Virus record (IMG/VR): IMGVR_UViG_3300032087_004567
DNA: 64,000 nt
Source of the DNA: a virus
Direction: 5' to 3' (one strand)
Shown: one piece after another, positions 6,609 through 54,728 of the stretch
How positions within the stretch are numbered: position 1 is the first letter of the stretch
Layout of the letters: each line of letters begins with the position of its first letter
The notes under the pieces: generated by a model
Told to the model about the DNA's origin: nothing
Databases searched by the model: none
What the model saw: only the letters and a program-made list of their open reading frames with translations
Translations under genes and position numbers: made by a program

Positions 6609-6959
6609 ATGGCAAGCACATTTAAAAATTATATTAAACAGGCAGTAGGTACAGGTAATACAGTAGTTTACAATCCTACAGCTTCAGGTATACAATCAAC
6701 AATTATTGGCATGACAGTGTCAAATAGAATAGCTAATAATATTTCAATAAGCGTTACAGTGTCTAATGGTGCTAACTCTGCACAAGCAGGAGCTAATACA
6801 GTTTACATTGTAAAGGATGCTGTAGTACCTTCAGGTGCTTCAATAGTACCAGTAGGAGGAGATCAAAAAGTAGTATTAGAAGAAAATGACTTTTTAGAAG
6901 TATCAGCTAATGCTGCATCATCTGCTGATGCATTAATATCTGTATTGGAGATTACATAA
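6609..6959 (+). CDS. Small virion adaptor-like protein
   Basis: Paralogous to 11448..11810 (VPxxxxxVxV...LEEND.....A.A....A.IS..EI). Confidence 0.6.
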   Translation: MASTFKNYIKQAVGTGNTVVYNPTASGIQSTIIGMTVSNRIANNISISVTVSNGANSAQAGANTVYIVKDAVVPSGASIVPVGGDQKVVLEENDFLEVSANAASSADALISVLEIT

Positions 6960-7471: not shown

Positions 7472-7474
7472 TTA

Positions 7475-35249: not shown

Positions 35250-36961
35250 TAATATTTGAATCGGTTAAATGGAAAAATCTATTAAGTACTGGTAACTCAT
35301 TTACTAAAATAGATATAACTAAAAATAAAAATACTCTAATGATTGGATCTAATGGTGCTGGTAAAAGTACTATATTAGATGCATTATGTTTTGGTTTATA
35401 TAATAAACCTTTTAGAAAGATACCTAAAGGTCATTTAGTAAATATGATCAATCAAAAGAACTTAGAGGTAGAAATAGAGTTTAGAGTGGGTAAAAGAAAT
35501 TATCGTATAGTTAGAGGTATAAAACCTAATAAGTTTGAAATATACTTAGATGATAATCTTATAGATCAAAATGCTGATGCAAAAGAGTATCAAGAATACT
35601 TAGAGAAGAATATACTAAAACTTAATCATAAATCGTTTTGTCAAATAGTTGTACTAGGTTCAGCTAACTTTCAACCTTTTATGCAATTATCTGTTACCAA
35701 TAGAAGACAAATAATAGAAGATTTATTAGACATACAAATATTTTCATTAATGAATAATATTTTAAAAACTAAGTTAAGTGATAATAAGTTAGAACTTAAT
35801 GAGGCTAGTTTTAATATTAGAAATAATGCAGATAAAATTACAATGCTTAAAGAGCATTTAGAAAAGCTTAAACAGAATAATGAAGATCTTATTAAACAAA
35901 AAGAAGATAAGATAGATGAGTATAGAAAGCAAATAGCTACTAATAATAAAACTATAAAAGATCTTACTGTTGATCTAAAAGCAAAACTAGATAGTATCTC
36001 TGATGGTGAAAAGCTTAAACTAAAAGATAAAGAAGTATGGAAATCTATACAAACACTTTCTGCTAAAAAGAGTCAGATAGAATCAGAAATAGAATTCTTT
36101 ACTGATCATAATGATTGTCCTACTTGTAAGCAGGGTATAGATCATGAACATAAACAAAGTATAGTTTCAAAAGATAACGAAAAGATAGAAGAGATAACTG
36201 AAATAGAAAAAAAGCTTGACGATACTCATGATAAGATAGCTGCTAGGTTTAAAGAAATAAATGCTATTAAAGTAAAGATAGATGAGCTTAATAAGACCAT
36301 ATCAAATTGCACAGTACAAATTGAGACTTATAACAATTTTATAACTGACCTGACTACTGAGATAACTAAGATAAAAAAGGATTCTAAAGATGGTGAGGAT
36401 AATTCTGAAGAGTTAAAGAAGTATAAAAACGATCTTAAAAAAGCTATAGAGAATAAAGAAACGTTAGCAAAGGATAAACAGTTATTAGATATTGCAGTTC
36501 ATATATTACGTGATAGTGGTATAAAGACAAAGATTATAAAGCAGTATGTACCAGTAATGAATAAATTAATAAATAAGTATCTCGCTGCATTAGACTTCTT
36601 TGTTAATTTTAACCTTAATGAAAATTTTGAAGAGACAATAAAGTCTAGACATAGAGATAATTTTGTATATGAAAATTTTTCTCAAGGTGAGAAACTTAGA
36701 ATTGATTTAGCGTTATTATTTACTTGGAGGGCAATAGCTAAGTTAAGAAATAGTGCTAATACTAATTTATTAATTATGGATGAAATATTAGATTCATCTT
36801 TAGATATGGATGGTACTGATGAGTTTCTAAAGTTGATACAACAGTTGACTGAAGAAACAAATGTCTTTATAATATCCCATAAAGGTGATCAATTATTTGA
36901 AAAATTTGATAATGTAATGAGATTTGAGAAATATAAAAACTTTTCGAGGATGATAGTATGA
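35246..36961 (+). CDS. gp46: Recombination ATPase gp46 (Rad50/SbcC-like)
   Basis: GSNGAGKST, CPTC zinc hook, FSQGEK, MDE..DSSLD, ISH. Confidence 0.94.
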   Translation: MIIFESVKWKNLLSTGNSFTKIDITKNKNTLMIGSNGAGKSTILDALCFGLYNKPFRKIPKGHLVNMINQKNLEVEIEFRVGKRNYRIVRGIKPNKFEIYLDDNLIDQNADAKEYQEYLEKNILKLNHKSFCQIVVLGSANFQPFMQLSVTNRRQIIEDLLDIQIFSLMNNILKTKLSDNKLELNEASFNIRNNADKITMLKEHLEKLKQNNEDLIKQKEDKIDEYRKQIATNNKTIKDLTVDLKAKLDSISDGEKLKLKDKEVWKSIQTLSAKKSQIESEIEFFTDHNDCPTCKQGIDHEHKQSIVSKDNEKIEEITEIEKKLDDTHDKIAARFKEINAIKVKIDELNKTISNCTVQIETYNNFITDLTTEITKIKKDSKDGEDNSEELKKYKNDLKKAIENKETLAKDKQLLDIAVHILRDSGIKTKIIKQYVPVMNKLINKYLAALDFFVNFNLNENFEETIKSRHRDNFVYENFSQGEKLRIDLALLFTWRAIAKLRNSANTNLLIMDEILDSSLDMDGTDEFLKLIQQLTEETNVFIISHKGDQLFEKFDNVMRFEKYKNFSRMIV

Positions 36962-37479
36962 TATATGATTTAGTACCTGAAGATGATCCTATACTTCAAA
37001 GAAGACTAGATAACTTTAACGTAGCAGAACCTCCGATAGACCCAAGAGAGCTTGCAAATAATCTAATAGAGACTATGGTGGAGCATAATGGACTAGGTAT
37101 ATCAGCTAATCAATGTGGTTTACCTTATAGGGTGTTCGTAATGAGATCAATAGAACCATTAGTAGTAATTAATCCAAGAATAGTTGATACATCTACTAAA
37201 GAAGTACTAATGGAAGAAGGTTGTATATCTTTTCCTAATCTGGTTATAAAAATTAAAAGACCAGAAAAAATTAAAGTACGATATGTTACCTTAAAAGAAT
37301 TTGAACCGATGCAGTTAGATACAATAACTGAAACTTTTCATGGAATGTCTGCAAGGGTATTCCAACACGAACTCGATCATTTAAATGGAATTGACTATAG
37401 AACTAGAGCAAATAGTATTCATTTAGATAGAGGAATGAGAAAGCGAAAGAGACTAGAGAGACAATCTAGAAGTCTGTGA
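36958..37479 (+). CDS. def: Peptide deformylase
   Basis: GLGISANQCG, EGCISFP, QHELDHL.G. Confidence 0.92.
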   Translation: MIYDLVPEDDPILQRRLDNFNVAEPPIDPRELANNLIETMVEHNGLGISANQCGLPYRVFVMRSIEPLVVINPRIVDTSTKEVLMEEGCISFPNLVIKIKRPEKIKVRYVTLKEFEPMQLDTITETFHGMSARVFQHELDHLNGIDYRTRANSIHLDRGMRKRKRLERQSRSL

Positions 37480-37504: not shown

Positions 37505-38353
37505 ATGCAAAAAATAAAAGTAGCTGAAATATTTTATAGTATTCAGGGTGAAGGCTTGTACGCTGGTGTACCTAGTATATTTTTAAGAACCTTTGGATGT
37601 AATTTTACATGTTCAGGTTTTGGTATGCCAAGAGGACAAGTTAGCGATGAAAGAAATAAAATACCTATTACTGAGACAAGTACATATGATAATTTACCAT
37701 TAGTAAAGACCGGTTGTGATTCATATGCATCTTGGGATCCAAGATTTAAAAATCTATCTAAGTTCTATACATTAGAAGAGATAGAAGATATTATTATAGA
37801 TTTATTACCGTATAAGGAATGGAGAGATGAGCATCTTATCATTACTGGTGGTGAACCATTACTTGGTTGGCAAAAGGCATATATTAATCTCTTACAGAGA
37901 GATAAGATGAAGAAATGTAAACATATTACTTTTGAAACTAATGGCACGCAAGAATTAAGAGATGAGTTTAGTGAGTTTTTAAATAACTGGTCTGTTGATA
38001 ATGAAACTAACTTTACATTTAGTGTAAGTACTAAACTAAGCCCTTCTGGTGAAAAATTTGAAGATGCAGTTAAACCAGAAGTTATATCTAGTTACAGTAT
38101 AGGTAATCAATTATTTTTTAAATTTGTAATTGATAGTGACGAAGATGTAGAAGAGATAGAAAAAGCACTTAAGGTCTATGATCTAAAAGAAGTAACCGGT
38201 CATGAACCTATAGTATATGTTATGCCTGTTGGTGGCACGTCAGATTTATACGATGTCAACAGAAGAAAGGTTGCAGAAATAGCTATGAAAAAAGGTTGGA
38301 GATTTAGTCCACGTCTGCAGGTTGATATTTGGAAAAACGCATGGGGTACTTAA
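37505..38353 (+). CDS. queE: 7-carboxy-7-deazaguanine synthase (radical SAM)
   Basis: EIFYSIQGEG...G.P.IFLR..GCN..C...CDS, ITGGEPL, FETNGT, S.KL, SPRL.V..W. Confidence 0.9.
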   Translation: MQKIKVAEIFYSIQGEGLYAGVPSIFLRTFGCNFTCSGFGMPRGQVSDERNKIPITETSTYDNLPLVKTGCDSYASWDPRFKNLSKFYTLEEIEDIIIDLLPYKEWRDEHLIITGGEPLLGWQKAYINLLQRDKMKKCKHITFETNGTQELRDEFSEFLNNWSVDNETNFTFSVSTKLSPSGEKFEDAVKPEVISSYSIGNQLFFKFVIDSDEDVEEIEKALKVYDLKEVTGHEPIVYVMPVGGTSDLYDVNRRKVAEIAMKKGWRFSPRLQVDIWKNAWGT

Positions 38354-38354
38354 T

Positions 38355-38849
38355 ATGAATTATTCGTATAGTATGATGGCTAGAGCAATACATGGTATTT
38401 GTAGTAATGTAGAAGCATCTAAAATAAAATTTGATTATATTGTAGGATTATCAAGAGGTGGGTTAGTACCTGCGGTAAGATTATCACATTGTTTAAATTT
38501 AGATCTTGTACCATTAAGATGGTCATTACGTGATCATAAGGCAAGAGATGTAAGAATACTTTCTAATATTCTAAGCGATCTAACTGAAGGTAAAAAAATA
38601 TTAATGGTAGATGATCTTATTGATTCAGGTGAATCAATTGATGTAATGTTACATCAGATGGCAAGAATAAGAGGTCAATTACAATTTAATTTATTTGATA
38701 AAACTTGGGAAAATAATTTAGATATTGCAGTATTATTATTTAATACTGATCAAAAGAAAGTAAGACGTCCTAGGTTTGCATATGAAAATTTTAGTAGAAA
38801 AGAACGTCCTGAATGGATTAATTTTTGGTGGGAGGCAAAAGCAGCATGA
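38355..38849 (+). CDS. Type I purine phosphoribosyltransferase (gpt-like)
   Basis: IVGLSRGGLVPA, PRPP loop ILMVDDLIDSGES, C-term WI.FWWE. Confidence 0.85.
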   Translation: MNYSYSMMARAIHGICSNVEASKIKFDYIVGLSRGGLVPAVRLSHCLNLDLVPLRWSLRDHKARDVRILSNILSDLTEGKKILMVDDLIDSGESIDVMLHQMARIRGQLQFNLFDKTWENNLDIAVLLFNTDQKKVRRPRFAYENFSRKERPEWINFWWEAKAA

Positions 38850-39343
38850 AATGGTATAGTACAAAAACGTATGGTAATGATCAAGGATTAAGTTGTTGTT
38901 TTAGACAATGGAAAGCTGATCATAGTCATTGTTCGTTAATACATGGTTATAGTTTAGGTTTTAAATTAGTATTTGAATGCGATAAATTAGATGCTAGAAA
39001 CTGGGTAATGGACTTTGGAGGATTAAAAGATCTTAAAGAATGGTTAAAGTATATGTTCGATCATACTTTGGTTATAGCTGAAAGTGATCCAAAGTATGAT
39101 GAGTTAGAAAGATTAGGTAAGATAGGTCTTGCTGATGTTAGAGTAGTAGATGCAGTTGGAGCTGAAAAGTTTGCAGAATTAGTCTTTCGTAAGATGACTG
39201 AAATATTAGATAAAGCAAGAGAGGATGGTAAGTTACTTAATCCTTCAGTTAAGGTGAAGAGTGTAGAATGTTTTGAGCATGGTGCTAATTCTGCAATCTT
39301 TGAAGAAGATAATGTAGAAAGTGAATTTGGGACTTTATTATGA
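38846..39343 (+). CDS. queD: 6-carboxytetrahydropterin synthase
   Basis: HCSLIHGY, WVMDFGGLK, FDH, E.FA, E...NSA. Confidence 0.88.
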   Translation: MKWYSTKTYGNDQGLSCCFRQWKADHSHCSLIHGYSLGFKLVFECDKLDARNWVMDFGGLKDLKEWLKYMFDHTLVIAESDPKYDELERLGKIGLADVRVVDAVGAEKFAELVFRKMTEILDKAREDGKLLNPSVKVKSVECFEHGANSAIFEEDNVESEFGTLL

Positions 39344-40023
39344 GTTGCTGGGAAAAGATAACTGAAAAAATGATTAAAGATGGCCATAGATTCTATGCTG
39401 CCGATAATGTATCTAAGTATATTGAACCACATGAAAAAGAAATACTAATTGATGAATGTACTAGAGCGTTTGAGTTTGTTCTTGATAGTTTATTAGTAGA
39501 TAGAAAGAACGATCCTAATAGTCAAGGTACTGCAAGACGATTAGCTAAGATGTATTATAATGAAATATTTGCAGGTAGATATACTCCTACACCTAATGCT
39601 ACTGCATTTCCTAACACTGGTGATGACAAGTATGACGGTATGTTAGTGGTAAGGGCAGAGTTAAGATCTATTTGTTCGCATCATCATCAACCTGTAAAGG
39701 GTGTTGCTTATATTGCAATTATACCTAATGAAAAGTTAATTGGTTTATCTAAGTATGTTAGACTTGCACAACATCTTGCAAGACGTGGTACATTGCAAGA
39801 AGAGTTATGTAATAGAATAGTAAATAGTATTCGTGAGGCTACTGGTTCAGATGATGTAGCTGTTTATATTTCTGCAACACATGGTTGTATGGAAAATAGA
39901 GGTATTAATGCTACTTCATCTCTTACTCAAACTACTAGATTAAGCGGTCAATTCCATGATCCTGATGTTAAGAAAGAGTTCTTTGATAATATTGCACTAC
40001 AGCAATCGTATGGTGAGAAGTAG
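39340..40023 (+). CDS. folE: GTP cyclohydrolase I
   Basis: T..R.AKMY, S.CSHH..P..G, GLSK..R, QEEL, HGCM..RG. Confidence 0.92.
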   Translation: MSCWEKITEKMIKDGHRFYAADNVSKYIEPHEKEILIDECTRAFEFVLDSLLVDRKNDPNSQGTARRLAKMYYNEIFAGRYTPTPNATAFPNTGDDKYDGMLVVRAELRSICSHHHQPVKGVAYIAIIPNEKLIGLSKYVRLAQHLARRGTLQEELCNRIVNSIREATGSDDVAVYISATHGCMENRGINATSSLTQTTRLSGQFHDPDVKKEFFDNIALQQSYGEK

Positions 40024-40052
40024 TTGATTTAATTTAGGAAATATATTATAAT
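40024..40052 (+). promoter_or_regulatory. Sigma70-like early/middle promoter inside the deazaguanine cluster
   Basis: TTGATT-N17-TATAAT. Confidence 0.7.
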
Positions 40053-40074
40053 ATTATTTTATTATGGAGGTAAT

Positions 40075-40335
40075 ATGATTAGTCAACTAAGTTCAAAAGC
40101 TAGAGTTAAACAAGATGGCATTGGTGAAGATACAATGCATACATTATGGGATTATCATGCTAGTGCTCATACAGATGAATATAGAGTTATGTGTAAAGAT
40201 GCTATTAAGAAGTCATCTGGTAAAAATGAGACTAAATCTAACGCATGTGATGCATTAGATAAAATGACATCTAAAACTAAAATGATGCAGTTTGTAACTA
40301 ATTATTTTCTTAAAGGTGAAGGAAGAGGTGTCTAA
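40075..40335 (+). CDS. Hypothetical protein
   Basis: Strong RBS ggagg; first ORF after the 40024 promoter. Confidence 0.65.
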   Translation: MISQLSSKARVKQDGIGEDTMHTLWDYHASAHTDEYRVMCKDAIKKSSGKNETKSNACDALDKMTSKTKMMQFVTNYFLKGEGRGV

Positions 40336-40688
40336 TGCCTAAGATGTATTTTGCAGAGTTTACCAAAGACAATAAAGTATTTCAAAAGTTTGGTCATACA
40401 GGTCATAACGATGCAATGATAAGACTTAATAATATTACAAAAGAATATCCGCAGTTTAAGGCAAGAGTCTTAGCTGCGGCATATCATAATGATATTACAA
40501 AGTGTCAAGGGGCAGAAGAAGCTTTTAAATGTATGTACCCTAAGAATTTTTGGTTAGAAGAAAAAATATCTGGTATTACCGAATGTGTTGTATTAGATCA
40601 ATCGACTAGAAATTCTGTTATTCAAGCAGTGAGAAAATTGAATACTAAATTTAAGGAGGAGTGTTTTGGCAATCAAGATAGCGCATGA
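40335..40688 (+). CDS. GIY-YIG superfamily (T5orf172/MUG113-like) putative nuclease
   Basis: Y......KFGHT......R...E......SGITEC resembles the Y..KIG.T...R...E...G.TE.F pattern. Confidence 0.5.
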   Translation: MPKMYFAEFTKDNKVFQKFGHTGHNDAMIRLNNITKEYPQFKARVLAAAYHNDITKCQGAEEAFKCMYPKNFWLEEKISGITECVVLDQSTRNSVIQAVRKLNTKFKEECFGNQDSA

Positions 40689-41508
40689 ATGTCCCTTAGG
40701 AGTTTTTTATAGAGTTCAAGAACTTACTGATTATGATTATGCATTAGTTCATTTATTTGAAGAGTCAGAAGAATACTATAATAAATTTCTTATGGCTAAA
40801 ATGGCAGGTAGAGAAATTATTTTAGATAATTCTATATTTGAATTAGGTGAGGCATTTGATGCAGAGAAGTATGCATATTGGATAGAAAAGCTTAAACCTG
40901 ATTGGTATATAGTACCTGATAGTTTAGAGAATAAAAATGAAACTATTTCTAACTATGAAAACTGGATTAAGAATTATAATGACTTACCTGGTAAAAAGAT
41001 TGGAGTTGTACAAGGTAAAAATTATGATGAGGCAGTTGATTGTTATAAATATTTTTCTGTAGCGCCATATTGTGAAAAGGTAGCAATATCATTTGACTAT
41101 TCTTTTTACGAGACTATGAATCATAACTTAGAGTTTCCAACTAAGTATCATGCATGGTGTTTAGGTAGACAAGTATTTTTAGATAGGTTAATTAGAGATG
41201 ATTGGATTAATTATAAGAGACCTCATCATTTACTTGGTTGTAGTTTACCTCAAGAGTTTTTATACTATAAAACGAACGATAAGTTTAGATTTATAGAATC
41301 TTTAGATACTTCTAATCCAGTAGTTGCAGGATTAAAGGGGATAGTTTATAATGATACTATGGGTTTAGATGATAAACCTTCAGAAAAATTATATACGATG
41401 ATTGAGAGTGATGTGAGTAAAAATACGCTCAGTCTTATTGAAAAAAATATAGATGCATTTAGGAGAATATGTAATGAACTGGGTAGCGCTTTTCAGTCAA
41501 ACGGGTAG
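40666..41508 (+). CDS. dpdA: TGT/DpdA-like TIM-barrel 7-deazaguanine transglycosylase/transferase (DpdA3-like)
   Basis: IILDNSIFE, VPD, GVVQG, HHLLG and SLDTS correspond to TGT-family DSGGF / GIVQG / LG / catalytic D strands. No Zn-binding tail. TTG start with RBS aggagga; lies within the que cluster. Confidence 0.65.
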   Translation: MAIKIAHECPLGVFYRVQELTDYDYALVHLFEESEEYYNKFLMAKMAGREIILDNSIFELGEAFDAEKYAYWIEKLKPDWYIVPDSLENKNETISNYENWIKNYNDLPGKKIGVVQGKNYDEAVDCYKYFSVAPYCEKVAISFDYSFYETMNHNLEFPTKYHAWCLGRQVFLDRLIRDDWINYKRPHHLLGCSLPQEFLYYKTNDKFRFIESLDTSNPVVAGLKGIVYNDTMGLDDKPSEKLYTMIESDVSKNTLSLIEKNIDAFRRICNELGSAFQSNG

Positions 41509-41998
41509 TGAAATAGATACTCTAAGTAGAAATCTAAATCAAAAACCTGATCAAATACTTACTAACAATAAAGACTATGATGGACCTTTAGAAGTTACAA
41601 AAGGTACACATAAAGAATTAATGGATATGTTAGAGGAGTTAGATCCTTATACTTTAGTTACTTTACATGGTTATTTAAGAATAATACCTGAACGTATTAC
41701 CTCCCATTGTAAAAGAATGTATAACGGTCATCCTGCTCTTGCTAATGTATATCCTGAACTAAGAGGATTAGATCCACAAAAGAGAACATGGCAGAATATA
41801 GAAAGATATGCTGCGGTTGGATCTATTGTTCATCATGTAATACCCGAGGTAGATGCAGGGGACGTAGTTGCATATGAATCTATTGTAATACCACATAGTG
41901 ACTATACAGAAGAGGCGTTATATGGTGATTTAAGAACATGTTCAATAGTATCATGGAAGAAATTTTTAATGGAGTACTTTAATGAAAATCGGCATTAG
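41474..41998 (+). CDS. dpdN: Divergent PurN-like formyltransferase, putative preQ1 N-formyltransferase (DpdN-like)
   Basis: ALFSQTGSEI, LHGYLRII, N.HP.L and GS.VHHV..EVDAG retain the formyltransferase N/H/D catalytic residues with an altered substrate loop. Confidence 0.65.
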   Translation: MNWVALFSQTGSEIDTLSRNLNQKPDQILTNNKDYDGPLEVTKGTHKELMDMLEELDPYTLVTLHGYLRIIPERITSHCKRMYNGHPALANVYPELRGLDPQKRTWQNIERYAAVGSIVHHVIPEVDAGDVVAYESIVIPHSDYTEEALYGDLRTCSIVSWKKFLMEYFNENRH

Positions 41999-42503
41999 TG
42001 GTGTGCATGGTAGTGGTAAGACTACTTTACTTAATAATGAAATGTTTAGAAGTTGCACTAAATGCGATGAAGTAACTAGAACGGTTAAAAAAGAGTATAA
42101 CGTTGAGATAAACGAACAAGGTAATGATGTTACTCAGAAGTTAATTATGAGAGAACATATGGCAAATCTTATACTCAATAATAATATGGTAACTGATAGA
42201 ACTGTTATTGATTGTATGGCCTATACCCATTACCTTTATGATAATAAACAAGTAAGTAAAGATACGTTTAATTATATTTCTATGTGCTATAGTAAACTAG
42301 TTAAGAAATATGATCTTATATTTTATCTTGTACCAGTTGAAGATAAAATTGCCGATGATGGTGTTAGATCTACTAATGTAGAATTTAGAGATAAAATGAT
42401 AGAGTATTTTGAAAAGTATATTAATCATTTTAATGTAGTAAAGGTTAAAGGTGATTATAAAGAACGTATAAGGTTTTGTAGAGAAACTTTATGCTTATTT
42501 TAA
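41982..42503 (+). CDS. P-loop nucleotide kinase (AAA_28/NadR-like), putative dNMP kinase
   Basis: GVHGSGKTT, E..R, DRT..D..AY, YDLIFY, DDGVR. Confidence 0.75.
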   Translation: MKIGISGVHGSGKTTLLNNEMFRSCTKCDEVTRTVKKEYNVEINEQGNDVTQKLIMREHMANLILNNNMVTDRTVIDCMAYTHYLYDNKQVSKDTFNYISMCYSKLVKKYDLIFYLVPVEDKIADDGVRSTNVEFRDKMIEYFEKYINHFNVVKVKGDYKERIRFCRETLCLF

Positions 42504-42512
42504 AGGAGAAGA

Positions 42513-43442
42513 ATGGATAATCAAAAGAAACTTAACGAACTAGTAAGTGTTCATTTAGGTAAAGCCGGGGATGGTTCAGTAGTTAAACCTTATGTAACCC
42601 CTGATGAAGTTGATCCTAGTTTACTTGTAGGTGTACCTAGACAATTAAATAGAACGCAATATGATTTAGATGATGGCAATCTACCTTTCGTCGGTTACGA
42701 CGTATGGAACGGCTATGAATTTTCAACTTTACTTACTAGTGGGTTTCCTGTATCGGGATGGGTTAAGTTTAGCTATAGTTCAAGTACACCTTTTATTGTA
42801 GAAAGTAAATCGGTTAAACTTTATCTTAACTCTTTTAATATGGCAAAGATAATTGAGACTGAAAAAGATATAGAAGTTATAGAGACTAAAATTAAGAATG
42901 ATATAGGTGAGGTAGTAAAAGGTGATGTTGACGTTAGAGTGTTTATTGATCCTAAGGAAACAAAAGAACCTTTTAAGAAACCTTTCTATAGTATAGAAAA
43001 ATTAGTTGATGTAGAAAATATAAAGTTTGATCGTTATAATGAATCTGAAGACATACTAAAAATCATACCCATGGGTGAATGTCCGTTGAAAGGATATTAT
43101 AGATCCTATTCGTTACGTTCTAATTGTAGGGTAACTAATCAACCTGATTGGGGTGATGTATACATTTATATCAAAGGTGCTATGACGGTAAGTTTAGAGT
43201 CATTATTACAATATATTGTTTCTATGAGAAGAGAGAATCATTTTCATGAGGAAATATGTGAATGTATCTATAAACGATTACATGATCTATTGTCACCTAT
43301 TGAGTTATTTGTTGGTTGTTTATATACTAGACGTGGTGGGATTGATATTAATCCTATTAGGGCAACATCTATGGAAACTGTTAAGGCAGTAAGTAATATT
43401 CATAATGTAAATAGACCATCAACTAAGACTGCAAGACAATGA
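42513..43442 (+). CDS. queF: NADPH-dependent preQ0 reductase, bimodular type
   Basis: QueF motif ESKSVKLYLNSF; SNC..T.QPDWG; FHE; YTRRGGIDINP.R. Confidence 0.92.
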   Translation: MDNQKKLNELVSVHLGKAGDGSVVKPYVTPDEVDPSLLVGVPRQLNRTQYDLDDGNLPFVGYDVWNGYEFSTLLTSGFPVSGWVKFSYSSSTPFIVESKSVKLYLNSFNMAKIIETEKDIEVIETKIKNDIGEVVKGDVDVRVFIDPKETKEPFKKPFYSIEKLVDVENIKFDRYNESEDILKIIPMGECPLKGYYRSYSLRSNCRVTNQPDWGDVYIYIKGAMTVSLESLLQYIVSMRRENHFHEEICECIYKRLHDLLSPIELFVGCLYTRRGGIDINPIRATSMETVKAVSNIHNVNRPSTKTARQ

Positions 43443-43717
43443 TTGAATACAAATATAATGAACCTGAACATTTAGATAGTTTAAAGAAGTATATTGATAA
43501 TACCTATAATCAACATTATGCAAAAGGTAGTATACAGGCAACAGAATATATTATTGATTCGGGTTTAGGTAAAGGTTTTTGTATTGGGAATGTAATTAAG
43601 TATGCCTCCCGATATGGAAAGAAAGAGGGTAAGAATAAGAATGATTTATATAAAATCGTTCATTACATCATAATGGAACTAAATAGTTTAGATAAGGAAC
43701 AAAATGAATCTAAGTGA
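43439..43717 (+). CDS. DUF3310-like small helical protein
   Basis: YKYNE...YI..TY.QHY, GFC.GN..KY..RYGKK.G..DL.K..HY. Confidence 0.7.
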   Translation: MIEYKYNEPEHLDSLKKYIDNTYNQHYAKGSIQATEYIIDSGLGKGFCIGNVIKYASRYGKKEGKNKNDLYKIVHYIIMELNSLDKEQNESK

Positions 43718-44459
43718 GGCTTTAAACGTATTACCGGACACCGATAACAAAGTTCTATCTGTACATTCCGGAGGTATGGATTCTTCTATAATGACTATGT
43801 TGTTGGTAGAAAAATATGGTAAAGACAAAGTGGAGACTGTTTCTTATCGGTACGGTCAGAAACAGGCTGAAGAACTAGTAAGAGCGCAGGAGTTCTGCAG
43901 AACGTTAGGTATCTTAAGACATGAACTAGATCTAACCATCTTAGGTTATATTGCAAGAGAAATCTCCGCTAACATTGTAGAGAGTCATATTAAGATGCCA
44001 ACCATTAAAGAGGTACTAGGAGATCCTCAGCCTAAGACCTACGTACCGTTTAGAAACTTAATTCTACTTTCTATGACTCTTGCCCAGGCCGAGGCAAGAA
44101 ACTGTAATTATATATTTACCGGATTACAAGTACATGATGAATATGGCTACTGGGATACATCACAGAAGTTTGTTGATAGTATAAATGCTGTTGCCGATCA
44201 AAATAGAACGCATAAGGTAAAAATTATTGCACCCTTTAGTCATTTATCTAAGTATGATGAAATAAAATTATGCCAGGAGATGGGTAAAGAAGAGTTATTA
44301 GAACATACTCTAACGTGTTATAATCCTGATTCAGAAGGAAGATCATGCGGTGTATGTCCTTCTTGTTCTGAACGTATTGCTAATTTTATTAAAGCAGGGG
44401 TAAGAGATCCAATAGTGTATGTAAAAGATTTGCCGTGGACACAATTATTAAATAAATAG
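43704..44459 (+). CDS. queC: 7-cyano-7-deazaguanine synthase
   Basis: SGGMDS, YGQ, TYVPFRN, TCY...CG.C.SC..R zinc site. Confidence 0.93.
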   Translation: MNLSEALNVLPDTDNKVLSVHSGGMDSSIMTMLLVEKYGKDKVETVSYRYGQKQAEELVRAQEFCRTLGILRHELDLTILGYIAREISANIVESHIKMPTIKEVLGDPQPKTYVPFRNLILLSMTLAQAEARNCNYIFTGLQVHDEYGYWDTSQKFVDSINAVADQNRTHKVKIIAPFSHLSKYDEIKLCQEMGKEELLEHTLTCYNPDSEGRSCGVCPSCSERIANFIKAGVRDPIVYVKDLPWTQLLNK

Positions 44460-44463
44460 TTAT

Positions 44464-44997
44464 ATGGCAAAATATAATCATAGAACTATACATACAGTAT
44501 ATCTTGATATGGATGGGGTTCTATGTGATTTCGATTCATATTACAGATCAATATACGGGGTAAATTGCAGAGATGACGATAATGAAGATAATTGGTACGA
44601 GTTTGTCAATAATCAAGGATTTCAAGAGCTCGATAGAATGCCAGGTTACGATGATCTGTTTTCAATGCTCAACGAGCTGTATGTGGATATCGAGATTCTT
44701 TCCTGTATTACTAGTAGGAAGAATAATAAAGAGGTTGCAAAACAAAAAGTAGAATGGTTATTTAGAAATAGTTTAGAAAATAATGTAATTAACTTTACTA
44801 TAACAAAACAAGGTAAAGGTAATTATGCTAATCCAAATGTATTGCTGATTGATGATTCTGATGAATGTATTTCAGCATTTAAACAAAGTGGGGGGTATGC
44901 TTTAAAGTATACCGGTATTGATAAGCTAAAATTTGAGATTGAATATTTATTAAGTGAAGATATATTATGTGTGCGATCGTTGGGTCATTTCAGTTAG
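44464..44997 (+). CDS. HAD-family 5'(3')-deoxyribonucleotidase-like protein
   Basis: YLDMDGVL.DF, ILS, K..WL, K..YA, LIDD. Confidence 0.8.
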   Translation: MAKYNHRTIHTVYLDMDGVLCDFDSYYRSIYGVNCRDDDNEDNWYEFVNNQGFQELDRMPGYDDLFSMLNELYVDIEILSCITSRKNNKEVAKQKVEWLFRNSLENNVINFTITKQGKGNYANPNVLLIDDSDECISAFKQSGGYALKYTGIDKLKFEIEYLLSEDILCVRSLGHFS

Positions 44998-45590
44998 ATA
45001 AACTTAAAGAACTAATCAAGTTAAATTCCTATAGAGGTTCTCATTCATACTCTATATCGTTTTATGATATAGAAAATGGTACGTTGAATAATGTTATAAA
45101 AGACTTTGGTGAATTAGATGTTGATACTATAAGAATACCTTATGGTGATTATTGTATAGCACATATACAAGCGCCTACAACAACTAAAAAAGATAAAGAT
45201 TCAATTCATCCGGCAACTGTCGATGATTGTTATCTATGGCATAATGGTATAATAAAAGAAATGACAATTGAGAAGTTTAGTAAAGAGTATAATACTAAAT
45301 GGGATACTAAGTTACTACTTGAAGGAATTAAAAAAGTAGGTTATAATATACTCAATGAAATGGATGGTACGTTTAGTTGTTTAATGTATAAAGATAAGAA
45401 TTTATTATTATTTCGTAATGAAATATCTCCGATGTTTATAGATGATGATTTTAATATTTCATCAACGAAGTTTGATAATAGTAGAGAAACAGATCCTAAT
45501 AAAGTTATACAAATGGATCTAAAGAATAAAAGTCTACAAACAGTAGATAGATTTAAAACGTATTTTAACCCTTATTACTTTGGAGATTAA
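44967..45590 (+). CDS. Stand-alone class II (Ntn) glutamine amidotransferase
   Basis: N-terminal MC.I.G nucleophile, RG..S, H...PT, HP, WHNGII, DT, G.FS, FRN. Confidence 0.8.
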   Translation: MCAIVGSFQLDKLKELIKLNSYRGSHSYSISFYDIENGTLNNVIKDFGELDVDTIRIPYGDYCIAHIQAPTTTKKDKDSIHPATVDDCYLWHNGIIKEMTIEKFSKEYNTKWDTKLLLEGIKKVGYNILNEMDGTFSCLMYKDKNLLLFRNEISPMFIDDDFNISSTKFDNSRETDPNKVIQMDLKNKSLQTVDRFKTYFNPYYFGD

Positions 45591-45939
45591 TGTGAGTAAT
45601 TTTACAAGAATAAAAGAATGGTCTGATGAAAGACTTATTACCCAACAAGAACCTGATCGTAATGGTTTTATTTCTATGATAGTAGAAGAGTGTGGTGAGT
45701 TTTTAGCAGCTGAATCTACAGAAGGTAGAATAGATGCAATGGCCGATATGATTGTATTTTGTTATGGTGAAATAGCAAAGTATGGATATGATGGTGATAA
45801 AGTTATGGATGAGGTAATTAAAGAGATAAGTTCTCGTACTGGTTCATATAGTCCTGAAACTAAGAAGTGGCAAAAGGATAAATCTCCAGAAGCACAAGCA
45901 AAGTGGTATTCTGCTAATTTTAATAATTGTAAGTTATAA
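45580..45939 (+). CDS. MazG-like all-alpha NTP pyrophosphohydrolase (true start may be GTG 45592)
   Basis: EE..EF...DA..D...F acidic motif; SR.G......KW.K. Confidence 0.7.
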   Translation: MEINVSNFTRIKEWSDERLITQQEPDRNGFISMIVEECGEFLAAESTEGRIDAMADMIVFCYGEIAKYGYDGDKVMDEVIKEISSRTGSYSPETKKWQKDKSPEAQAKWYSANFNNCKL

Positions 45940-45948
45940 TGAAGAAAG

Positions 45949-46812
45949 GTGACTATGAAAATAGAAATTAATATTAATGAGCTGAGAAAGGCAAAGCTCT
46001 TTGTAGCTACTCCTATGTATGGTGGTCAATGTGCAGGGTTGTATACAAAGTCTATTGCCGATCTATCAGCATTATGTGCAAAGTATGGCTTGCAATTGCA
46101 ACTGTATTATTTGTTTAATGAGTCGTTGATTACTAGAGCTAGAAACTACTGCTGTGATGAGTTTCTAAGAAGTGGTGCAACACATTTACTATTCTTAGAT
46201 TCTGATATTGGTTTTAATCCGCATGATGTTATTGCTATGTTAACGTTAATGTTACAGAATCCTGGTAAGTTTGACATTATGGGTGCGCCTTATCCTAAGA
46301 AATGTATCTCATGGGAGAAGATTTTACAGGCGGTTAATAAAGGTGTTGCTGATGAGAATCCTAACGAGTTAGATAACTTTGTTGGTGATTTTGTATTTAA
46401 TCCTAAAGGTGGTGCACAAACTATACCATTAGGTGAACCTGCCGAGGTAATGGAGCTAGGTACTGGCTTTATGATGATACAGAGGGAAGTATTTAAGAAG
46501 TATGACGAGAAGTTTCCTGAGTTAAAATATAAACCTGATCATGTTCGTACTGAGCATTTTGATGGTACAAGAGAAATTATGGCATACTTTGATTGTATTA
46601 TCGATCCTAAGTCTAAGAGGTATCTATCTGAAGATTATATGTTCTGTTATAATGCTGAAAAGGCTGGTATTAGAACTTGGTTATGTCCTTGGATGAAAAC
46701 TACCCATGTTGGTTCTTATATGTTTGGTGGAAGCTTAAGCCATCTTGCAACTGTGGGGGCATCTGCTACTGCCGATCCTGGTAAACTTAAAAAGAAAGGT
46801 GCCATAAAATGA
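45949..46812 (+). CDS. GT-A fold glycosyltransferase
   Basis: FVATPMYGG, NESLITRARN, LFLDSDIGF (DxD), GTGFM.I.R, LSEDY.FC. Confidence 0.8.
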   Translation: MTMKIEININELRKAKLFVATPMYGGQCAGLYTKSIADLSALCAKYGLQLQLYYLFNESLITRARNYCCDEFLRSGATHLLFLDSDIGFNPHDVIAMLTLMLQNPGKFDIMGAPYPKKCISWEKILQAVNKGVADENPNELDNFVGDFVFNPKGGAQTIPLGEPAEVMELGTGFMMIQREVFKKYDEKFPELKYKPDHVRTEHFDGTREIMAYFDCIIDPKSKRYLSEDYMFCYNAEKAGIRTWLCPWMKTTHVGSYMFGGSLSHLATVGASATADPGKLKKKGAIK

Positions 46813-47501: not shown

Positions 47502-48443
47502 ATGCTAAATGATGAAATGCTCTGGGGGCAGAAATATCGCCCTAGAACAGTAAGTGATACGATTTTACCTAACGAATTGAAAGATACTTTTCAAGAGTTT
47601 GTAAATCAAAAGAATGTACCTAATTTACTTTTATCTGGTTCTCCAGGTACTGGTAAAACTACAGCTGCAAAAGCTATGTTAGAAGAAGTAGATTGTGATT
47701 ATATTGTTATTAACGGTAGTTTAAATGGTAATATTGATACGTTAAGAAATGATATAAAGTCATTTGCATCTGCTGTATCTTTATCTGGTGGTAGAAAATA
47801 TGTAATACTAGATGAAGCTGATTATCTAAATCCTAATTCAACTCAACCTGCTCTTCGTAACTTTATGGAAGAGTATTCTAAGAATTGTGGTTTTATTCTA
47901 ACGTGTAACTTTAAGAATAGAATTATAGAACCTCTACATTCAAGATGTGGTGTTGTTGAATTTAAAATACCTAAACAAGATAAACCTAAACTTGCTAAAA
48001 GTTTCTTTCAAAGAGTTAAAGAAATATTAGATCAAGAAAATATTGAGTATGATCAAAAGGTAGTTGCCTCTTTAGTACAGAAACATTTTCCAGACTTCAG
48101 AAGAACTATAAATGAACTGCAAAGATATTCTGCTACCGGTAAAATAGATTCAGGTATACTATCTAATCATAAAGAAGAATCGTTGAAGATGGTTATGGGT
48201 TTATTGAAAGAGAAAAACTTTACTGAGGTTAGAAAATGGGTAGGTGAAAATTCTGATGTTGATACTACTACATTTTTTAGAAGTTTATATGATACAGCAT
48301 CTGAATTTTTAAAGCCTGCATCTATACCTCAGTTAGTTTTACTATTAGCTGATTATCAATATAAGGCTGCATTTGTAGCTGATCCTGAAATTAATATTAT
48401 GGCCTGCTTAACTGAAATAATGGTTGAAGCAGAATTTAAATAG
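47502..48443 (+). CDS. gp44: Clamp loader large subunit gp44
   Basis: W..KYRP, G.PGTGKTT, LDEAD, QPALR.FME, SRC. Confidence 0.94.
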   Translation: MLNDEMLWGQKYRPRTVSDTILPNELKDTFQEFVNQKNVPNLLLSGSPGTGKTTAAKAMLEEVDCDYIVINGSLNGNIDTLRNDIKSFASAVSLSGGRKYVILDEADYLNPNSTQPALRNFMEEYSKNCGFILTCNFKNRIIEPLHSRCGVVEFKIPKQDKPKLAKSFFQRVKEILDQENIEYDQKVVASLVQKHFPDFRRTINELQRYSATGKIDSGILSNHKEESLKMVMGLLKEKNFTEVRKWVGENSDVDTTTFFRSLYDTASEFLKPASIPQLVLLLADYQYKAAFVADPEINIMACLTEIMVEAEFK

Positions 48444-49021
48444 TGGGTAAAGTAGGAGTATTAATTTCTGGTACTGGATCTAATCTTAAAGCTCTTGTGG
48501 ATGCTTTAGTCCCAATAGCTTGGGTTGGATCCAACAATCCAGATGCAAAAGGTTTGGATTTTGCTCATAAGAAGAACATCCATACCTTTGTGGAACCAAA
48601 GATTGCCGAACTTGAAAAGATCTTAGATCATTTTATGAAAGAGGTTGAGTTTTTGGTTCTTGCAGGTTTTATGAGAGTACTATCTCCTGAATTTGTGAAG
48701 AAGTATCCCAAAAGGATTATAAATATTCATCCAAGTTTGTTACCTGCATTCAAAGGTAAGGATGCTATTCGTAGAGCATATGATTATGGTTGTAAAGTTA
48801 TGGGTGTTACTATCCATTATGTTAATGAGAAAGTAGATGAAGGTGAGATCATTGCACAAGAACCTCTTTGGATTGTGAATACAATTTTAAATCATAATGC
48901 ACAACATACTAATCAAGTACGATATACTTACAAAGAAGTCGAACAACAAGTTCATAAGCTAGAACATAGTATGTATCACAAAGTCGTTCGAGATATGTTA
49001 GGTATTGGTGGTTGGGGATAA
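48443..49021 (+). CDS. purN: Phosphoribosylglycinamide formyltransferase (canonical PurN-like)
   Basis: VLISGTGSNL.AL, LAGFMRVL, INIHPSLLP.F.G, GVTIHYV...VD.G.II.Q, EH. Confidence 0.88.
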   Translation: MGKVGVLISGTGSNLKALVDALVPIAWVGSNNPDAKGLDFAHKKNIHTFVEPKIAELEKILDHFMKEVEFLVLAGFMRVLSPEFVKKYPKRIINIHPSLLPAFKGKDAIRRAYDYGCKVMGVTIHYVNEKVDEGEIIAQEPLWIVNTILNHNAQHTNQVRYTYKEVEQQVHKLEHSMYHKVVRDMLGIGGWG

Positions 49022-52178: not shown

Positions 52179-54728
52179 ATGAGTAAATTTTATACAAGTG
52201 TCTTTATGAATCGCGGTGATGTATTGCTACGTGGTTATGAGAACGGTAAGCGAGTACAACATGCAATACATTACAAACCATATCTTTTTGTTGGTTCAAG
52301 GATAAAAGATACTGATTATCGAACTATCAAAGGTAAGCCTGTTGATAAAATAGAGTTTGGTAGTGTATATGAAGCACGCGAGTTTTTAAGAAAGTATAAA
52401 GGTGTAGATGGAATGGACATCTACGGTCTGACTAATTTTATCTACACCTTTATTCATGATCATTATCCGGGCACAATCGACTACGACCCTAAACTAATCT
52501 CCGTTGTCTCGATCGATATTGAGACGTCCGCCGAAGGAGGTTTTCCAGATATTCAATCTGCTGATAAAGAAATAACTGCCATTACTATTAGTAAAAAAGG
52601 CAAAATGGTTGTGCTTGGATATAATGATTTCGAAATACCCCAAGGTGAAGAAGATAACATTACCTATTTGAAATGTGAATCTGAATCAGATCTACTTAAT
52701 AAGTTTATAAAGGTATGGAGATCCACACAATTTATTCCTGATGTTGTTACTGGTTGGAACTGTGAGTTCTTTGATATGCCCTACATTATAAATCGTATTA
52801 GTAGAATTATTGGACCTGAAAGTGCAAAAAGACTATCGCCTTGGGGTATAATATCGTATCGTGAAGTAGAGATAGCAGGTAGACAATATAGTATTCCTGA
52901 GATAGTAGGTATTACTATCTTAGATTATATGCAGTTGTATAAGAAGTTCTCTTTTACAATGCAAGAAAGTTACAAATTAGATTACATTGCCCAGGTCGTC
53001 CTTGGTGAGCGTAAACTTGATTATGATGCTCTTGGTTATGCTAACTTAGATGAGTTCTATAAAGGAAATTATCAAAAGTACATTGAATATAATATTCAGG
53101 ACGTGCGACTGGTAGATAGATTAGAAGATAAACTTAAATTCATAGAACAGGTGTTCGCCCTTGCCTATGATGGAAAGACTAATTATCTAGATACGTTTAC
53201 CTCAGTACGATCTTGGGACATGTATATCCATAATGAGTTACTATCTAAGAAGATAGTTATACCTCAGTTTGATCCATCAGAAAGAGCTAAAGATAATCCT
53301 ATTGAAGGTGCCTATGTTAAAGAACCTAAAGTAGGTATGCATAAATGGGTTGTATCTTTTGACTTAAATAGTCTATACCCTCATTTGATCATGCAATATA
53401 ATATCTCACCTGAAACCTTTGTAGATACTATATCTTCTCTGAGTGTGAAAGATGGAGTGGATAAGATACTTAATGGTGCATTGAATGATCCTGCAATAAG
53501 AAATGAAATGGAATCACAAAATGTAACTGTTGCTGCAACCGGTTGTATGTTTGATAAAGACTATCAAGGCTTTTTACCTCAGATGATGCAACGACTATAT
53601 GATGATAGGGTAAAGTTTAAGAATCAGATGATCGAGGCTAAGAAGAAGTATGAGAAAGAAAAAACATATGAACTAGAAAAGGAGATAGCACGTTGTCATA
53701 ATATGCAGCTTGCTAAAAAGATTCAGCTTAACTCGGTTTATGGTGCATTAGGTAACAAGTACTTTAGATGGTATGATCCTAGATATGCTGAATCGATTAC
53801 TAAGTCCGGTCAGTTATCTATTCGTTGGATGGAGAATAAAATAAATGGTTATCTGAATAAAGTACTTAAGACTGATAATGAAGATTATGTAATAGCTGTT
53901 GATACTGATTCGATGTATATAAACTTAGATGAGTTTGTACAAAAGACTTGTGAAGGTAAAACTACAGAGGATATAGTTAAGTACTTAGATAAAGTTTGTA
54001 ATGATGTCTTTGAACCTTTCATTGATAGATGCTATGAAGAGTTAGGTAAGTATGTTAATGCCTATGATCAGAAGATGAAGATGAAAAGAGAGGCAATAGC
54101 TGATAAAGGTATATGGACTGCTAAAAAGAGATATATTCTTAATGTAAGAAATAACGAGGGTGTTCAATATAAAGAACCTCAGTTAAAGATTATGGGTATT
54201 GAGGCAGTTAGATCTTCTACTCCTGCTATAATTAGACAAACGATTAAAGATGCATTGAAACTAATTATGACTAAGACTGAAGATGATGTAATTGATTTTA
54301 TTGCACAGCAACGAGAAGACTTTCGTGGTAGACCTTTTGAAGATGTAGCCTTTCCAAGAGGTTGTAAAGAGATAGAAAAATGGATGGATAATAGTACCAG
54401 TATAAAAGTATATAAGTCTGGTTGTCCTATTCATGTGAAAGGTGCTATACTATATAATCTTTTATTAGAACAAAAGAAGCTAACTAATAAATATGAGAAG
54501 ATAAACAGGGGTGAGAAAATAAAGTTTAGTTATCTTAAGATGCCTAACTTTATTGGAGAACATGTAATTAGTTCACCTGATAAATTACCTGAAGAGTTTG
54601 AATTGAATGAGTTTATAGATTATGATATGCAATTTCAAAAGTCCTTCCTTGACCCTTTAAAAACTATTCTTGATGTCATAGGTTGGGAAACAGAACGACG
54701 TAATACATTGGAGAATTTTTTCGCATGA
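52179..54728 (+). CDS. gp43: Family B DNA polymerase gp43
   Basis: DIET, GWN..FFD, SFDLNSLYP, K...NS.YG, DTDS, KKRY, GIEAVRSSTP. Confidence 0.97.
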   Translation: MSKFYTSVFMNRGDVLLRGYENGKRVQHAIHYKPYLFVGSRIKDTDYRTIKGKPVDKIEFGSVYEAREFLRKYKGVDGMDIYGLTNFIYTFIHDHYPGTIDYDPKLISVVSIDIETSAEGGFPDIQSADKEITAITISKKGKMVVLGYNDFEIPQGEEDNITYLKCESESDLLNKFIKVWRSTQFIPDVVTGWNCEFFDMPYIINRISRIIGPESAKRLSPWGIISYREVEIAGRQYSIPEIVGITILDYMQLYKKFSFTMQESYKLDYIAQVVLGERKLDYDALGYANLDEFYKGNYQKYIEYNIQDVRLVDRLEDKLKFIEQVFALAYDGKTNYLDTFTSVRSWDMYIHNELLSKKIVIPQFDPSERAKDNPIEGAYVKEPKVGMHKWVVSFDLNSLYPHLIMQYNISPETFVDTISSLSVKDGVDKILNGALNDPAIRNEMESQNVTVAATGCMFDKDYQGFLPQMMQRLYDDRVKFKNQMIEAKKKYEKEKTYELEKEIARCHNMQLAKKIQLNSVYGALGNKYFRWYDPRYAESITKSGQLSIRWMENKINGYLNKVLKTDNEDYVIAVDTDSMYINLDEFVQKTCEGKTTEDIVKYLDKVCNDVFEPFIDRCYEELGKYVNAYDQKMKMKREAIADKGIWTAKKRYILNVRNNEGVQYKEPQLKIMGIEAVRSSTPAIIRQTIKDALKLIMTKTEDDVIDFIAQQREDFRGRPFEDVAFPRGCKEIEKWMDNSTSIKVYKSGCPIHVKGAILYNLLLEQKKLTNKYEKINRGEKIKFSYLKMPNFIGEHVISSPDKLPEEFELNEFIDYDMQFQKSFLDPLKTILDVIGWETERRNTLENFFA

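Follow-up and report, generated by a model that had tools for sequence, protein, structure and literature searches.

A 64,000-nucleotide stretch of viral DNA (IMG/VR virus record IMGVR_UViG_3300032087_004567), referred to below as the window, contains at positions 37505–45939 an island of ~8.4 kb that very likely enables an uncultured T4-like phage to replace the guanine of its DNA with 7-(formylamino)methyl-7-deazaguanine (fdPreQ1). This degree of confidence applies to the identity of the system and to its product only; the replacement would probably be at or near 100% of G. With regard to the route of exchange, a deoxynucleoside kinase (dNK)-like kinase, nucleoside triphosphate (NTP) hydrolases and a missing zinc subdomain make an exchange on free nucleotides, before replication, about as likely as the published post-replicative route.

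The island consists of 15 co-directional open reading frames (ORFs), all on the + strand, whose identities were obtained from hidden Markov model (HMM) scans against Pfam, PHROGs and NCBIfam. Intergenic space is minimal: the widest gap is 51 nt (40024–40074), and most adjacent genes overlap by 1–56 nt. An earlier reading of the stretch, made from its letters alone (the sequence-only reading), had described this layout, and every gene was found on the + strand at the position it gave.

The key gene of the island (40666–41508) encodes a 280-aa protein of phrog_19058, which is 55% identical to the DpdA3 of Flavobacterium phage immuto_2-6A (E 1e-94, 96% of length) and 39% identical, over 94% of its length, to an unannotated homologue in the Campylobacter phages CP220 and CP21. 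[quoted passage not shown] A Pfam search with the protein returned no tRNA-guanine transglycosylase (TGT) match, and a PDB sequence-profile search returned nothing meaningful. A structural model, constructed with AlphaFold2 (AF2) from a 24-sequence alignment (predicted local distance difference test (pLDDT) score 90), gave as its top Foldseek matches exclusively tRNA-guanine transglycosylases, at ~1e-8 (best 1.7e-8). Comparison with TGT using VIA gave a Z of 18.3 and a root-mean-square deviation of 3.1 Å over 240 aligned residues of the TIM barrel, at ~12% identity. Sequence methods are blind to the kinship of DpdA3 with TGT; only the fold search identifies the family. The TGT/DpdA-like barrel proposed at this position in the sequence-only reading is borne out by the fold and by the identity to immuto DpdA3, and the outcome that reading had named as fatal to its proposal, a protein lacking the TGT fold, was not what was found.

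Compared with bacterial TGT (PF01702), DpdA3 is a minimal barrel, ~100 residues shorter, and the CxCxxC zinc motif is present in 0 of the 24 aligned members. The residues D54 (in the motif LDNS), D85, D144 (SFD) and D214 (SxDTSNP) are invariant in all 24 sequences. From sequence and model together, the protein is a TGT-fold member of the DpdA3 subfamily, with a predicted activity of exchanging guanine for a 7-deazaguanine. The isoelectric point was dropped as a proxy for DNA binding because it did not discriminate (DpdA3 median 5.2, compared to 6.3 for a DpdA1), and a DpdA-like ORF of Bacillus phage BSTP12, annotated as 'NadR', was rejected as a candidate kinase fusion, being a plain 262-aa barrel.

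Within DpdA, complete replacement of guanine goes with the DpdA3 subfamily: by dADG in CP220, dDG in phiST and fdPreQ1 in immuto (PMC10516641). In immuto DNA, no dG was detected and fdPreQ1 amounted to 345,000 per 10^6 nt (PMC10516641, Table 1). The main text of PMC10516641 does not use the words kinase, phosphoribosyltransferase or dGTP. Our literature search turned up nothing later on DpdA3 or fdPreQ1.

The next gene (41453–41998, Pfam Formyl_trans_N 5e-13) encodes a PurN paralogue, the true start of which is likely at 41474, slightly downstream of the longest-ORF start. The protein is 37% identical to immuto DpdN, and a tblastn search with it against the 50,697 phage records matched immuto only. 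Both proteins score far below the PurN equivalog cut-off of 150.1 bits (46 bits for the window protein and 55 bits for immuto DpdN). Residues N91, H93 and D134, invariant in 17 sequences, align with the NxHP and D motifs of PurN chains of known structure. We therefore assign 41474–41998 as a predicted DpdN orthologue, a putative preQ1/dPreQ1 N-formyltransferase; the link drawn in the sequence-only reading between a PurN paralogue named DpdN and formyl-dPreQ1 in a Flavobacterium phage is correct (PMC10516641).

A second formyltransferase of the window (48443–49021, +), just after gp44, is a canonical PurN (GAR transformylase): it passes the PurN equivalog cut-off with 153.7 bits, matches phrog_9240 (1e-33) and is 27% identical to DpdN. 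It fills a variable slot, as the related locus L005 has other genes there and L004 runs straight to gp62.

For a comparative survey, the 80 best DpdA3 loci were tested by tblastn with the window proteins plus variants from relatives. The IMG/VR loci were retrieved with an alignment query, a single-protein query having retrieved none. Sufficient downstream sequence was available for 69 of the 80 loci, and 38 loci had full flanks, a set biased toward long contigs. In 64 of the 69, the gene immediately after DpdA3 is DpdN. Natural DpdA3–DpdN fusions of 447 aa occur on two independent contigs, P0177 (L092, 2262–3605) and P0203 (L093, 554–1897), and an AAA_28 kinase gene abuts both, downstream of the fusion in L092 and upstream in L093. 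In three further loci (L058, L060 and L061), DpdN is missing and DpdA3 is followed directly by the kinase and QueF; by gene content, these are predicted to stop at unformylated dPreQ1.

All five enzymes from GTP to preQ1 are present by HMM, so that the pathway encoded in the island is complete, with QueE as the weakest of the five assignments. FolE (GTP cyclohydrolase I, 39340–40023, Pfam GTP_cyclohydroI 4.3e-40), QueD (6-carboxytetrahydropterin synthase, 38825–39343, Pfam PTPS 1.7e-14), QueC (preQ0 synthase, 43704–44459, Pfam QueC 2.4e-49) and QueF (a bimodular NADPH-dependent preQ0 reductase, 42513–43442, Pfam QueF_N 4.7e-28 and QueF 1.3e-20) all score above the Pfam gathering thresholds. 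QueD is 45% identical to that of immuto, and QueC is 49–60% identical to the QueC of KVP40-like Vibrio phages. FolE and QueF are present in 38 of the 38 full-flank loci, and QueF in all 69 loci with enough downstream sequence.

The first gene of the island (37505–38353) encodes a divergent QueE-like radical SAM enzyme (7-carboxy-7-deazaguanine synthase). Five NCBIfam QueE models match it (9e-18 to 2e-11), all under their cut-offs, and the Pfam matches to Radical_SAM and Fer4_12 are weak. The EIFxSIQGEG-type N-terminus is kept, with conserved cysteines at 32, 36 and 71 (CX3CX34C), and the protein is 54% identical to the gene product at the same position in L004 and L005. In the immuto-type QueE, CX3C is followed by about 9 residues and the next cysteine, whereas the QueE of the T4-like lineage has an insertion of ~25 residues there. 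From this spacing, the latter may be an undescribed cluster-binding variant.

Some relatives carry further genes among these enzymes. The 99%-identical relative L002 has an extra 237-aa ORF between QueD and FolE (6879–7592), which has no Pfam match and is absent from the window; a NUMOD3 homing-endonuclease-like gene is found in L004 close to the QueD–FolE position; and a carbamoyltransferase (Carbam_trans_N/C) adjoins QueC in immuto-like islands (L006, 4040–5707; 8 of the 38 full-flank loci).

Two genes downstream of QueC, a free-standing class II N-terminal nucleophile (Ntn) glutaminase is encoded (44967–45590, phrog_12378 4.8e-52). The protein begins Met-Cys, and C2, R23-G24, H92-N93-G94 and D113-T114 are invariant in 13 sequences. 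Its profile aligns with the GlmS glutaminase domain from residue 1 (3e-5), and Pfam GATase_6 and GATase_7 match just below cut-off. By sequence, the protein is of the class II type, with all the hallmarks of an active enzyme. Homologues directly adjoin QueC in 49 records of KVP40-like Vibrio phages, and among the 80 DpdA3 loci the gene is found in 25, all of them T4-like. Its role is most likely that of an ammonia donor for QueC.

The proposed pathway is as follows. FolE, QueD, QueE and QueC would convert GTP to preQ0, with the glutaminase feeding ammonia to QueC, and QueF would reduce preQ0 to preQ1. DpdA3 would exchange guanine for the 7-deazaguanine, and DpdN would formylate the aminomethyl group, with a formyl-folate as donor.

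The prediction of an N-formyl-preQ1 product, already made in the sequence-only reading, is well supported, since immuto carries an orthologous and syntenic block and has its dG fully replaced. The two phages share the block DpdA3–DpdN–kinase–QueF in the same order, with 55, 37, 34 and 46% identity, together with QueD, FolE, QueE, a phosphoribosyltransferase (PRTase) and an NTP pyrophosphohydrolase of the PRA-PH family, and the predicted product is the same. The backbones differ, immuto having PolA and GroEL/ES and the window being T4-like with a gp43 family B polymerase. The window adds the glutaminase, an NT5C/HAD nucleotidase, a GIY-YIG-like gene and a DUF3310 gene, and keeps QueC inside the island, and its QueE is of another subtype, only 21% identical to that of immuto. 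That the window phage replaces its dG as immuto does is what we infer from these genes.

Several points weigh against this assignment. Identity to the characterized proteins is moderate (37–55%), QueE and the PRTase score below the curated family cut-offs, and the invariant aspartates of DpdA3 were matched to TGT D102, D156 and D280 by motif order only. The function of DpdN was itself predicted from gene neighbourhood only, and the activity of DpdA3 could not be demonstrated in E. coli (PMC10516641). For the window phage and the T4-like carriers, fdPreQ1 is a prediction from genes. Lastly, a glutaminase stands beside QueC in Vibrio phage nt-1, which reportedly has traces of dG+ (PMC8306585), and a minor second product is therefore possible.

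A DNA base other than fdPreQ1, either because DpdN has another role and the pathway stops at dPreQ1, or because the glutaminase and other accessory genes lead to some additional or mixed product, for example dG+, is quite unlikely. The case for it draws on the role of DpdN being a prediction in PMC10516641, on the loci L058, L060 and L061, which keep DpdA3, kinase and QueF and lack DpdN, and on the canonical PurN of the window, which indicates that formyl metabolism has other uses in the phage. Against it stand the tight linkage of DpdN to DpdA3 (64 of 69 loci, and fused in two clusters), the conserved catalytic residues of DpdN, and immuto, which has the same core genes and contains only fdPreQ1. 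As for dG+, nt-1 carries the pair of QueC and glutaminase and reportedly has traces of dG+, dPreQ0 and dADG (PMC8306585), whereas phi-Grn1, which has the same pair and QueF, contains dPreQ1 and mdPreQ1 and no dG+ (PMC10516641). The glutaminase was accordingly rejected as a sign of dG+, with the traces in nt-1 leaving a small doubt, and no gene of the island calls for the derivative beyond formyl-preQ1 that the sequence-only reading had allowed for.

The KVP40-like Vibrio phages (Schizotequatrovirus) share with the window the T4-like backbone, QueC (49%) and the glutaminase beside it (35–38%). They differ in having low levels of dPreQ1/mdPreQ1, and DpdM in place of DpdN. In phi-Grn1 and phi-ST2, dPreQ1 amounts to 668–816 per 10^6 nt, and the tailoring is by the methyltransferase DpdM (PMC10516641). 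A homologue of DpdA3 was not found in the Vibrio phage records.

That the island modifies tRNA (queuosine-type), or only boosts the preQ1 of the host, and leaves the phage DNA unmodified is very improbable indeed: the fold is that of tRNA-guanine transglycosylase and many marine T4-like phages carry que genes, but DpdA3 shows no resemblance in sequence to the Pfam TGT model and lacks the motif of the zinc subdomain, which in TGT serves tRNA binding. In addition, the three fully modified DpdA3 phages immuto, CP220 and phiST have no other TGT-family gene by the Pfam TGT model, a weak check as that model misses DpdA3 itself.

The remaining genes bear on how the base would enter DNA. Downstream of DpdN, a P-loop kinase is encoded (41982–42503, Pfam AAA_28 1.7e-11) that belongs to the group of deoxynucleoside kinases, thymidylate kinases (TMPK) and NadR-type ribosylnicotinamide kinases (RNK). 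It matches phrog_2107 'thymidylate kinase' (8e-27), and a PDB profile search placed a deoxynucleoside kinase first (2.6e-5, with the DR motif aligned), followed by a NadR-type ribosylnicotinamide kinase and then TMPK (6e-4). The protein is 34% identical to the immuto kinase and 37% identical to CP220 gp057 (E 6e-30). A homologous kinase lies ≤2.6 kb downstream of DpdA3 in 53 of the 69 loci; the 16 loci lacking it are all T4-like 'minimal' islands, with only 250–370 nt between DpdN and QueF.

A type I purine-type PRTase is encoded at 38322–38849 (Pfam Pribosyltran 2.5e-11; phrog_8995), with a probable start at ~38355, downstream of the longest-ORF start. Its best NCBIfam match is xanthine PRTase (xanthine/guanine type, 1.2e-10), under cut-off, and homologues are present in immuto (31%), in phiST (CGPG_00045) and in 32 of the 80 loci. 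A HAD-family protein resembling 5'(3')-deoxyribonucleotidase (NT5C) is encoded at 44464–44997 (phrog_2643 1.7e-26; Pfam NT5C 1e-4, just under cut-off), with relatives in 14 of the 80 loci.

The last gene of the island (45580–45939, Pfam PRA-PH 1.1e-5) encodes a MazG/PRA-PH-like, all-alpha NTP pyrophosphohydrolase, which matches the same Pfam family, PRA-PH, as the NTP pyrophosphohydrolase of immuto (3e-10). The immuto-type enzyme is found ≤1 kb upstream of DpdA3 in 27 loci. Across six T4-like loci (L007, L008, L014, L035, L045 and L072), the MazG-like gene is ~80% identical, compared to 45–55% for other genes, and in other T4-like loci a DCD-family gene occupies its slot. This pattern suggests either an exchange of cassettes or a constraint of unusual strength.

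The two other phages with complete replacement have related sets of genes. CP220 (Firehammervirus; dADG at 100% of G) shares with the window a DpdA3 homologue (39%) followed directly by the kinase (37%), with a phosphohydrolase before them; it lacks QueF and DpdN, its product is dADG, and the phosphohydrolase, in which an HD domain is joined to an AAA_33 P-loop domain, is not of the MazG type. In Cellulophaga phage phiST (dDG at 100% of G), a MazG-like NTPase is encoded two genes from a DpdA3-subfamily protein, FolE, QueD and QueE are likewise shared, and a homologous PRTase gene adjoins that of a ribonucleotide reductase. The phage differs in its DpdL decarboxylase chemistry and in lacking QueC, QueF and DpdN, and no kinase homologue was found in its first 50 kb.

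We hypothesize that the exchange may take place on a free deoxynucleoside or deoxynucleotide, followed by phosphorylation and incorporation by the polymerase, a possibility to which we give a little less than an even chance. The NTPase, with or without the nucleotidase, would take dGTP down to dGMP or dG; DpdA3 would then swap the base and DpdN formylate it, the dNK-like kinase would re-phosphorylate the product, the polymerase would incorporate the analogue triphosphate, and the PRTase would recycle the released guanine.

This sequence of steps would have parallels. In T4, the dCTPase gp56, the dCMP hydroxymethylase gp42 and the dNMP kinase gp1 lead to hmdCTP, and in Z-genome phages MazZ, PurZ and DatZ lead to dZTP. 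In each of these routes, a base-altering enzyme works together with an NTP pyrophosphatase and a nucleotide kinase, and one base is fully replaced. The proteins are unrelated to those of the island, and the parallel is an analogy of working only.

For an exchange on free nucleotides speak the 100% replacement unique to DpdA3, the loss of the zinc subdomain, the linkage of kinase and NTPases to DpdA3, and the presence of the nucleotidase. The kinase also adjoins the DpdA3–DpdN fusions, on either side. Furthermore, infected cells have been reported to contain the ADG nucleoside, and DpdA3 did not work in E. coli on its own (PMC10516641). On the other side, the cytoplasmic nucleoside could stem from DNA turnover, the kinase is absent from 23% of the islands, and the DCD-family gene in the NTPase slot of most T4-like loci may be a backbone dCTP deaminase. 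The evidence consists of gene neighbourhood and fold. In addition, there is no precedent for such a reaction: we know of no TGT-fold enzyme that acts on mononucleotides.

The published, post-replicative route is a serious possibility as well, at rather under an even chance. In it, DpdA3 would act on replicated DNA and put preQ1 or formyl-preQ1 in the place of G, the PRTase and kinase would recycle excised guanine to GMP, GDP and back to GTP for FolE, and the MazG-like enzyme and nucleotidase would serve general housekeeping of the nucleotide pool. All characterized TGT-family enzymes act on a polynucleotide, and post-replicative insertion was proposed for all DpdA subfamilies on the grounds that DpdA is always present (PMC10516641). 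This route also fits the best family match of the PRTase, xanthine/guanine-type, as expected for guanine salvage; the 16 of 69 islands, all T4-like, with no kinase between DpdN and QueF; the many islands lacking the PRTase and HAD genes; and the overlap, in this lineage, of the gene for a GIY-YIG-like, putatively DNA-acting protein with the start of DpdA3.

Against the post-replicative route, complete replacement is found only with DpdA3, while no more than 30% is replaced with the DNA-acting DpdA1, DpdA2, DpdA4 and bDpdA (PMC10516641). The zinc subdomain motif of TGT is missing from DpdA3. The dNK/TMPK-type kinase stays beside DpdA3 across four backbones and despite changes of gene order. An NTP phosphohydrolase is found beside DpdA3 in immuto-like loci, phiST and CP220, drawn from three non-orthologous folds (HD, MazG and PRA-PH). 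In a limited control, tblastn of the WildeMaa DpdA1 and phiSM clusters gave no homologues of the kinase, PRTase or NTPase within 6 kb. A mixed or other route of exchange is unlikely.

Three further genes of the island are less readily placed. The 117-aa protein encoded at 40335–40688, the gene of which overlaps the start of DpdA3 by 23 nt, was labelled GIY-YIG-like in the sequence-only reading; the label finds backing in a weak fold match and a motif pattern, and none from HMMs. Its AF2 model (pLDDT 88) has a beta-beta-alpha-beta-alpha core. In an unbiased VIA search, the best five of 48,161 chains were all GIY-YIG nucleases (HIGLE, Slx1 twice, I-TevI and PD-T4-3), with a Z of only 5.8–4.2, and Foldseek gave E values of 0.4 or worse. 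The invariant residues Y5, G20-H21-T22, R30, N71 and E75 fit the GIY-YIG pattern. No Pfam, PHROGs or NCBIfam match was obtained, including GIY-YIG and T5orf172 at E ≤ 1, and the PDB profile search returned coiled-coil noise. The gene is present in 14 of the 80 loci. By analogy with T4 endonuclease II, one may speculate that the protein could attack unmodified DNA.

The gene before it (40075–40335) encodes an 86-aa protein with no match in Pfam, PHROGs, NCBIfam or Atlas; orthologues are found in 11 of the 80 loci, all with the T4-like backbone. The DUF3310 protein (43439–43717, Pfam DUF3310 1.1e-12) lies in a variable slot, where relatives hold unrelated small ORFs. In a single cluster (P0259, 344 aa), DUF3310 is fused to the C-terminus of DpdA3, which hints that the gene may be functionally linked to the island rather than filler.

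The surrounding genome is T4-like, as the sequence-only reading had it, with a gp23-type capsid protein, portal, sheath, TerL, gp47/gp46, gp45, gp44, gp43 (52179–54728), UvsX and gp41. The capsid protein is nearest to that of Stenotrophomonas phage DLP_6 (67%), followed by Methylophilales and Pelagibacter myophages and cyanomyophages. On the left, the island is flanked by the peptide deformylase gene def (36958–37479, +, Pep_deformylase 6e-34), and on the right by a phrog_1574 gene (45949–46812, +, 1e-58), both of them backbone genes outside the island.

DLP_6 presents the empty site: gp46, several genes, def, two small ORFs, the phrog_1574 gene, dsbA and gp45. The distance from def to the phrog_1574 gene is ~650 bp in DLP_6, with the two small ORFs between, and the same two genes bracket the island of the window. 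Because these genes sit together in the island-free DLP_6, the limits at 37505 and 45939, first drawn from the sequence alone, are right. The same island is found at this backbone site in L004, L005, L007, L008 and others. The possibility that def acts as an fdPreQ1 deformylase was rejected, since the island-free DLP_6 carries this backbone gene in the matching place.

Homologues of the phrog_1574 protein are encoded by T4-like phages that have no island (DLP_6, 64%; phiM12; pelagiphages; cyanophages), and the gene was rejected as an island member. The 'GT' seen at this position in the sequence-only reading is thus a backbone gene, and its reading as a GT-A glycosyltransferase is a lead from a language model only.

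Promoter-like sites were no commoner than in shuffled sequence (57 compared to 63.8 ± 8.7), and no claim is made as to operon structure. Elsewhere in the window, a 656-aa protein (1401–3371, +) matches phrog_61 '2OG-Fe(II) oxygenase' over its full length (5e-93), and its C-terminal part additionally matches a DNA endonuclease PHROG.

The DpdA3 family comprises 4,080 proteins at E ≤ 1e-5 in 90% clusters, and 3,061 representative clusters at E ≤ 1e-3; DpdA3 was found in more than 584 IMG/VR stretches. Two backbones predominate among the 80 loci: 32 are T4-like, flanked by def and phrog_1574, and 31 are immuto-like, with PolA and GroEL. L007 and L008 carry nearly the same rich gene set as the window; in L005 the set is likewise the same or almost the same, and the three loci keep its gene order. 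The accessory genes are a recurring configuration across loci and therefore not a new variant, as had been suggested from the sequence: the PRTase, kinase and NTP pyrophosphatase are already in immuto, the kinase is in CP220, the PRTase and MazG are in phiST, and the glutaminase stands beside QueC in KVP40-like phages.

The island of the window was found almost whole (≥94% of sampled words, ~99.7% identity) in 16 DNA runs from 7 studies, covering seawater, sediment, biofilm and marine metagenomes. These are Illumina data, which are silent on base modification; the joints reported in them had short sides and were left out of account. One biofilm contig spans 37868–46088 with 25 differences, and short matching contigs in one RNA-Seq library are possibly due to DNA carry-over. 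This uncultured marine T4-like phage is thus geographically or ecologically widespread.

The gene set itself has already been published; the present analysis extends the fdPreQ1 system, described from one cultured Flavobacterium phage and three uncultured contigs, to a marine T4-like lineage, a backbone that is not represented among the cultured fdPreQ1 phages. Given the size of the DpdA3 family (3,061 representative clusters), full replacement of guanine may be common in aquatic phages, which would affect the evasion of restriction and CRISPR, the prediction of hosts, and native-DNA sequencing of viromes. The comparison sharpens a doubt, testable at the bench, about the accepted mechanism of DpdA3 systems. 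If the exchange takes place before replication, DpdA3 would be the first TGT-fold enzyme to act on mononucleotides, and the accepted model would be wrong for the most efficient members of this class of DNA modification.

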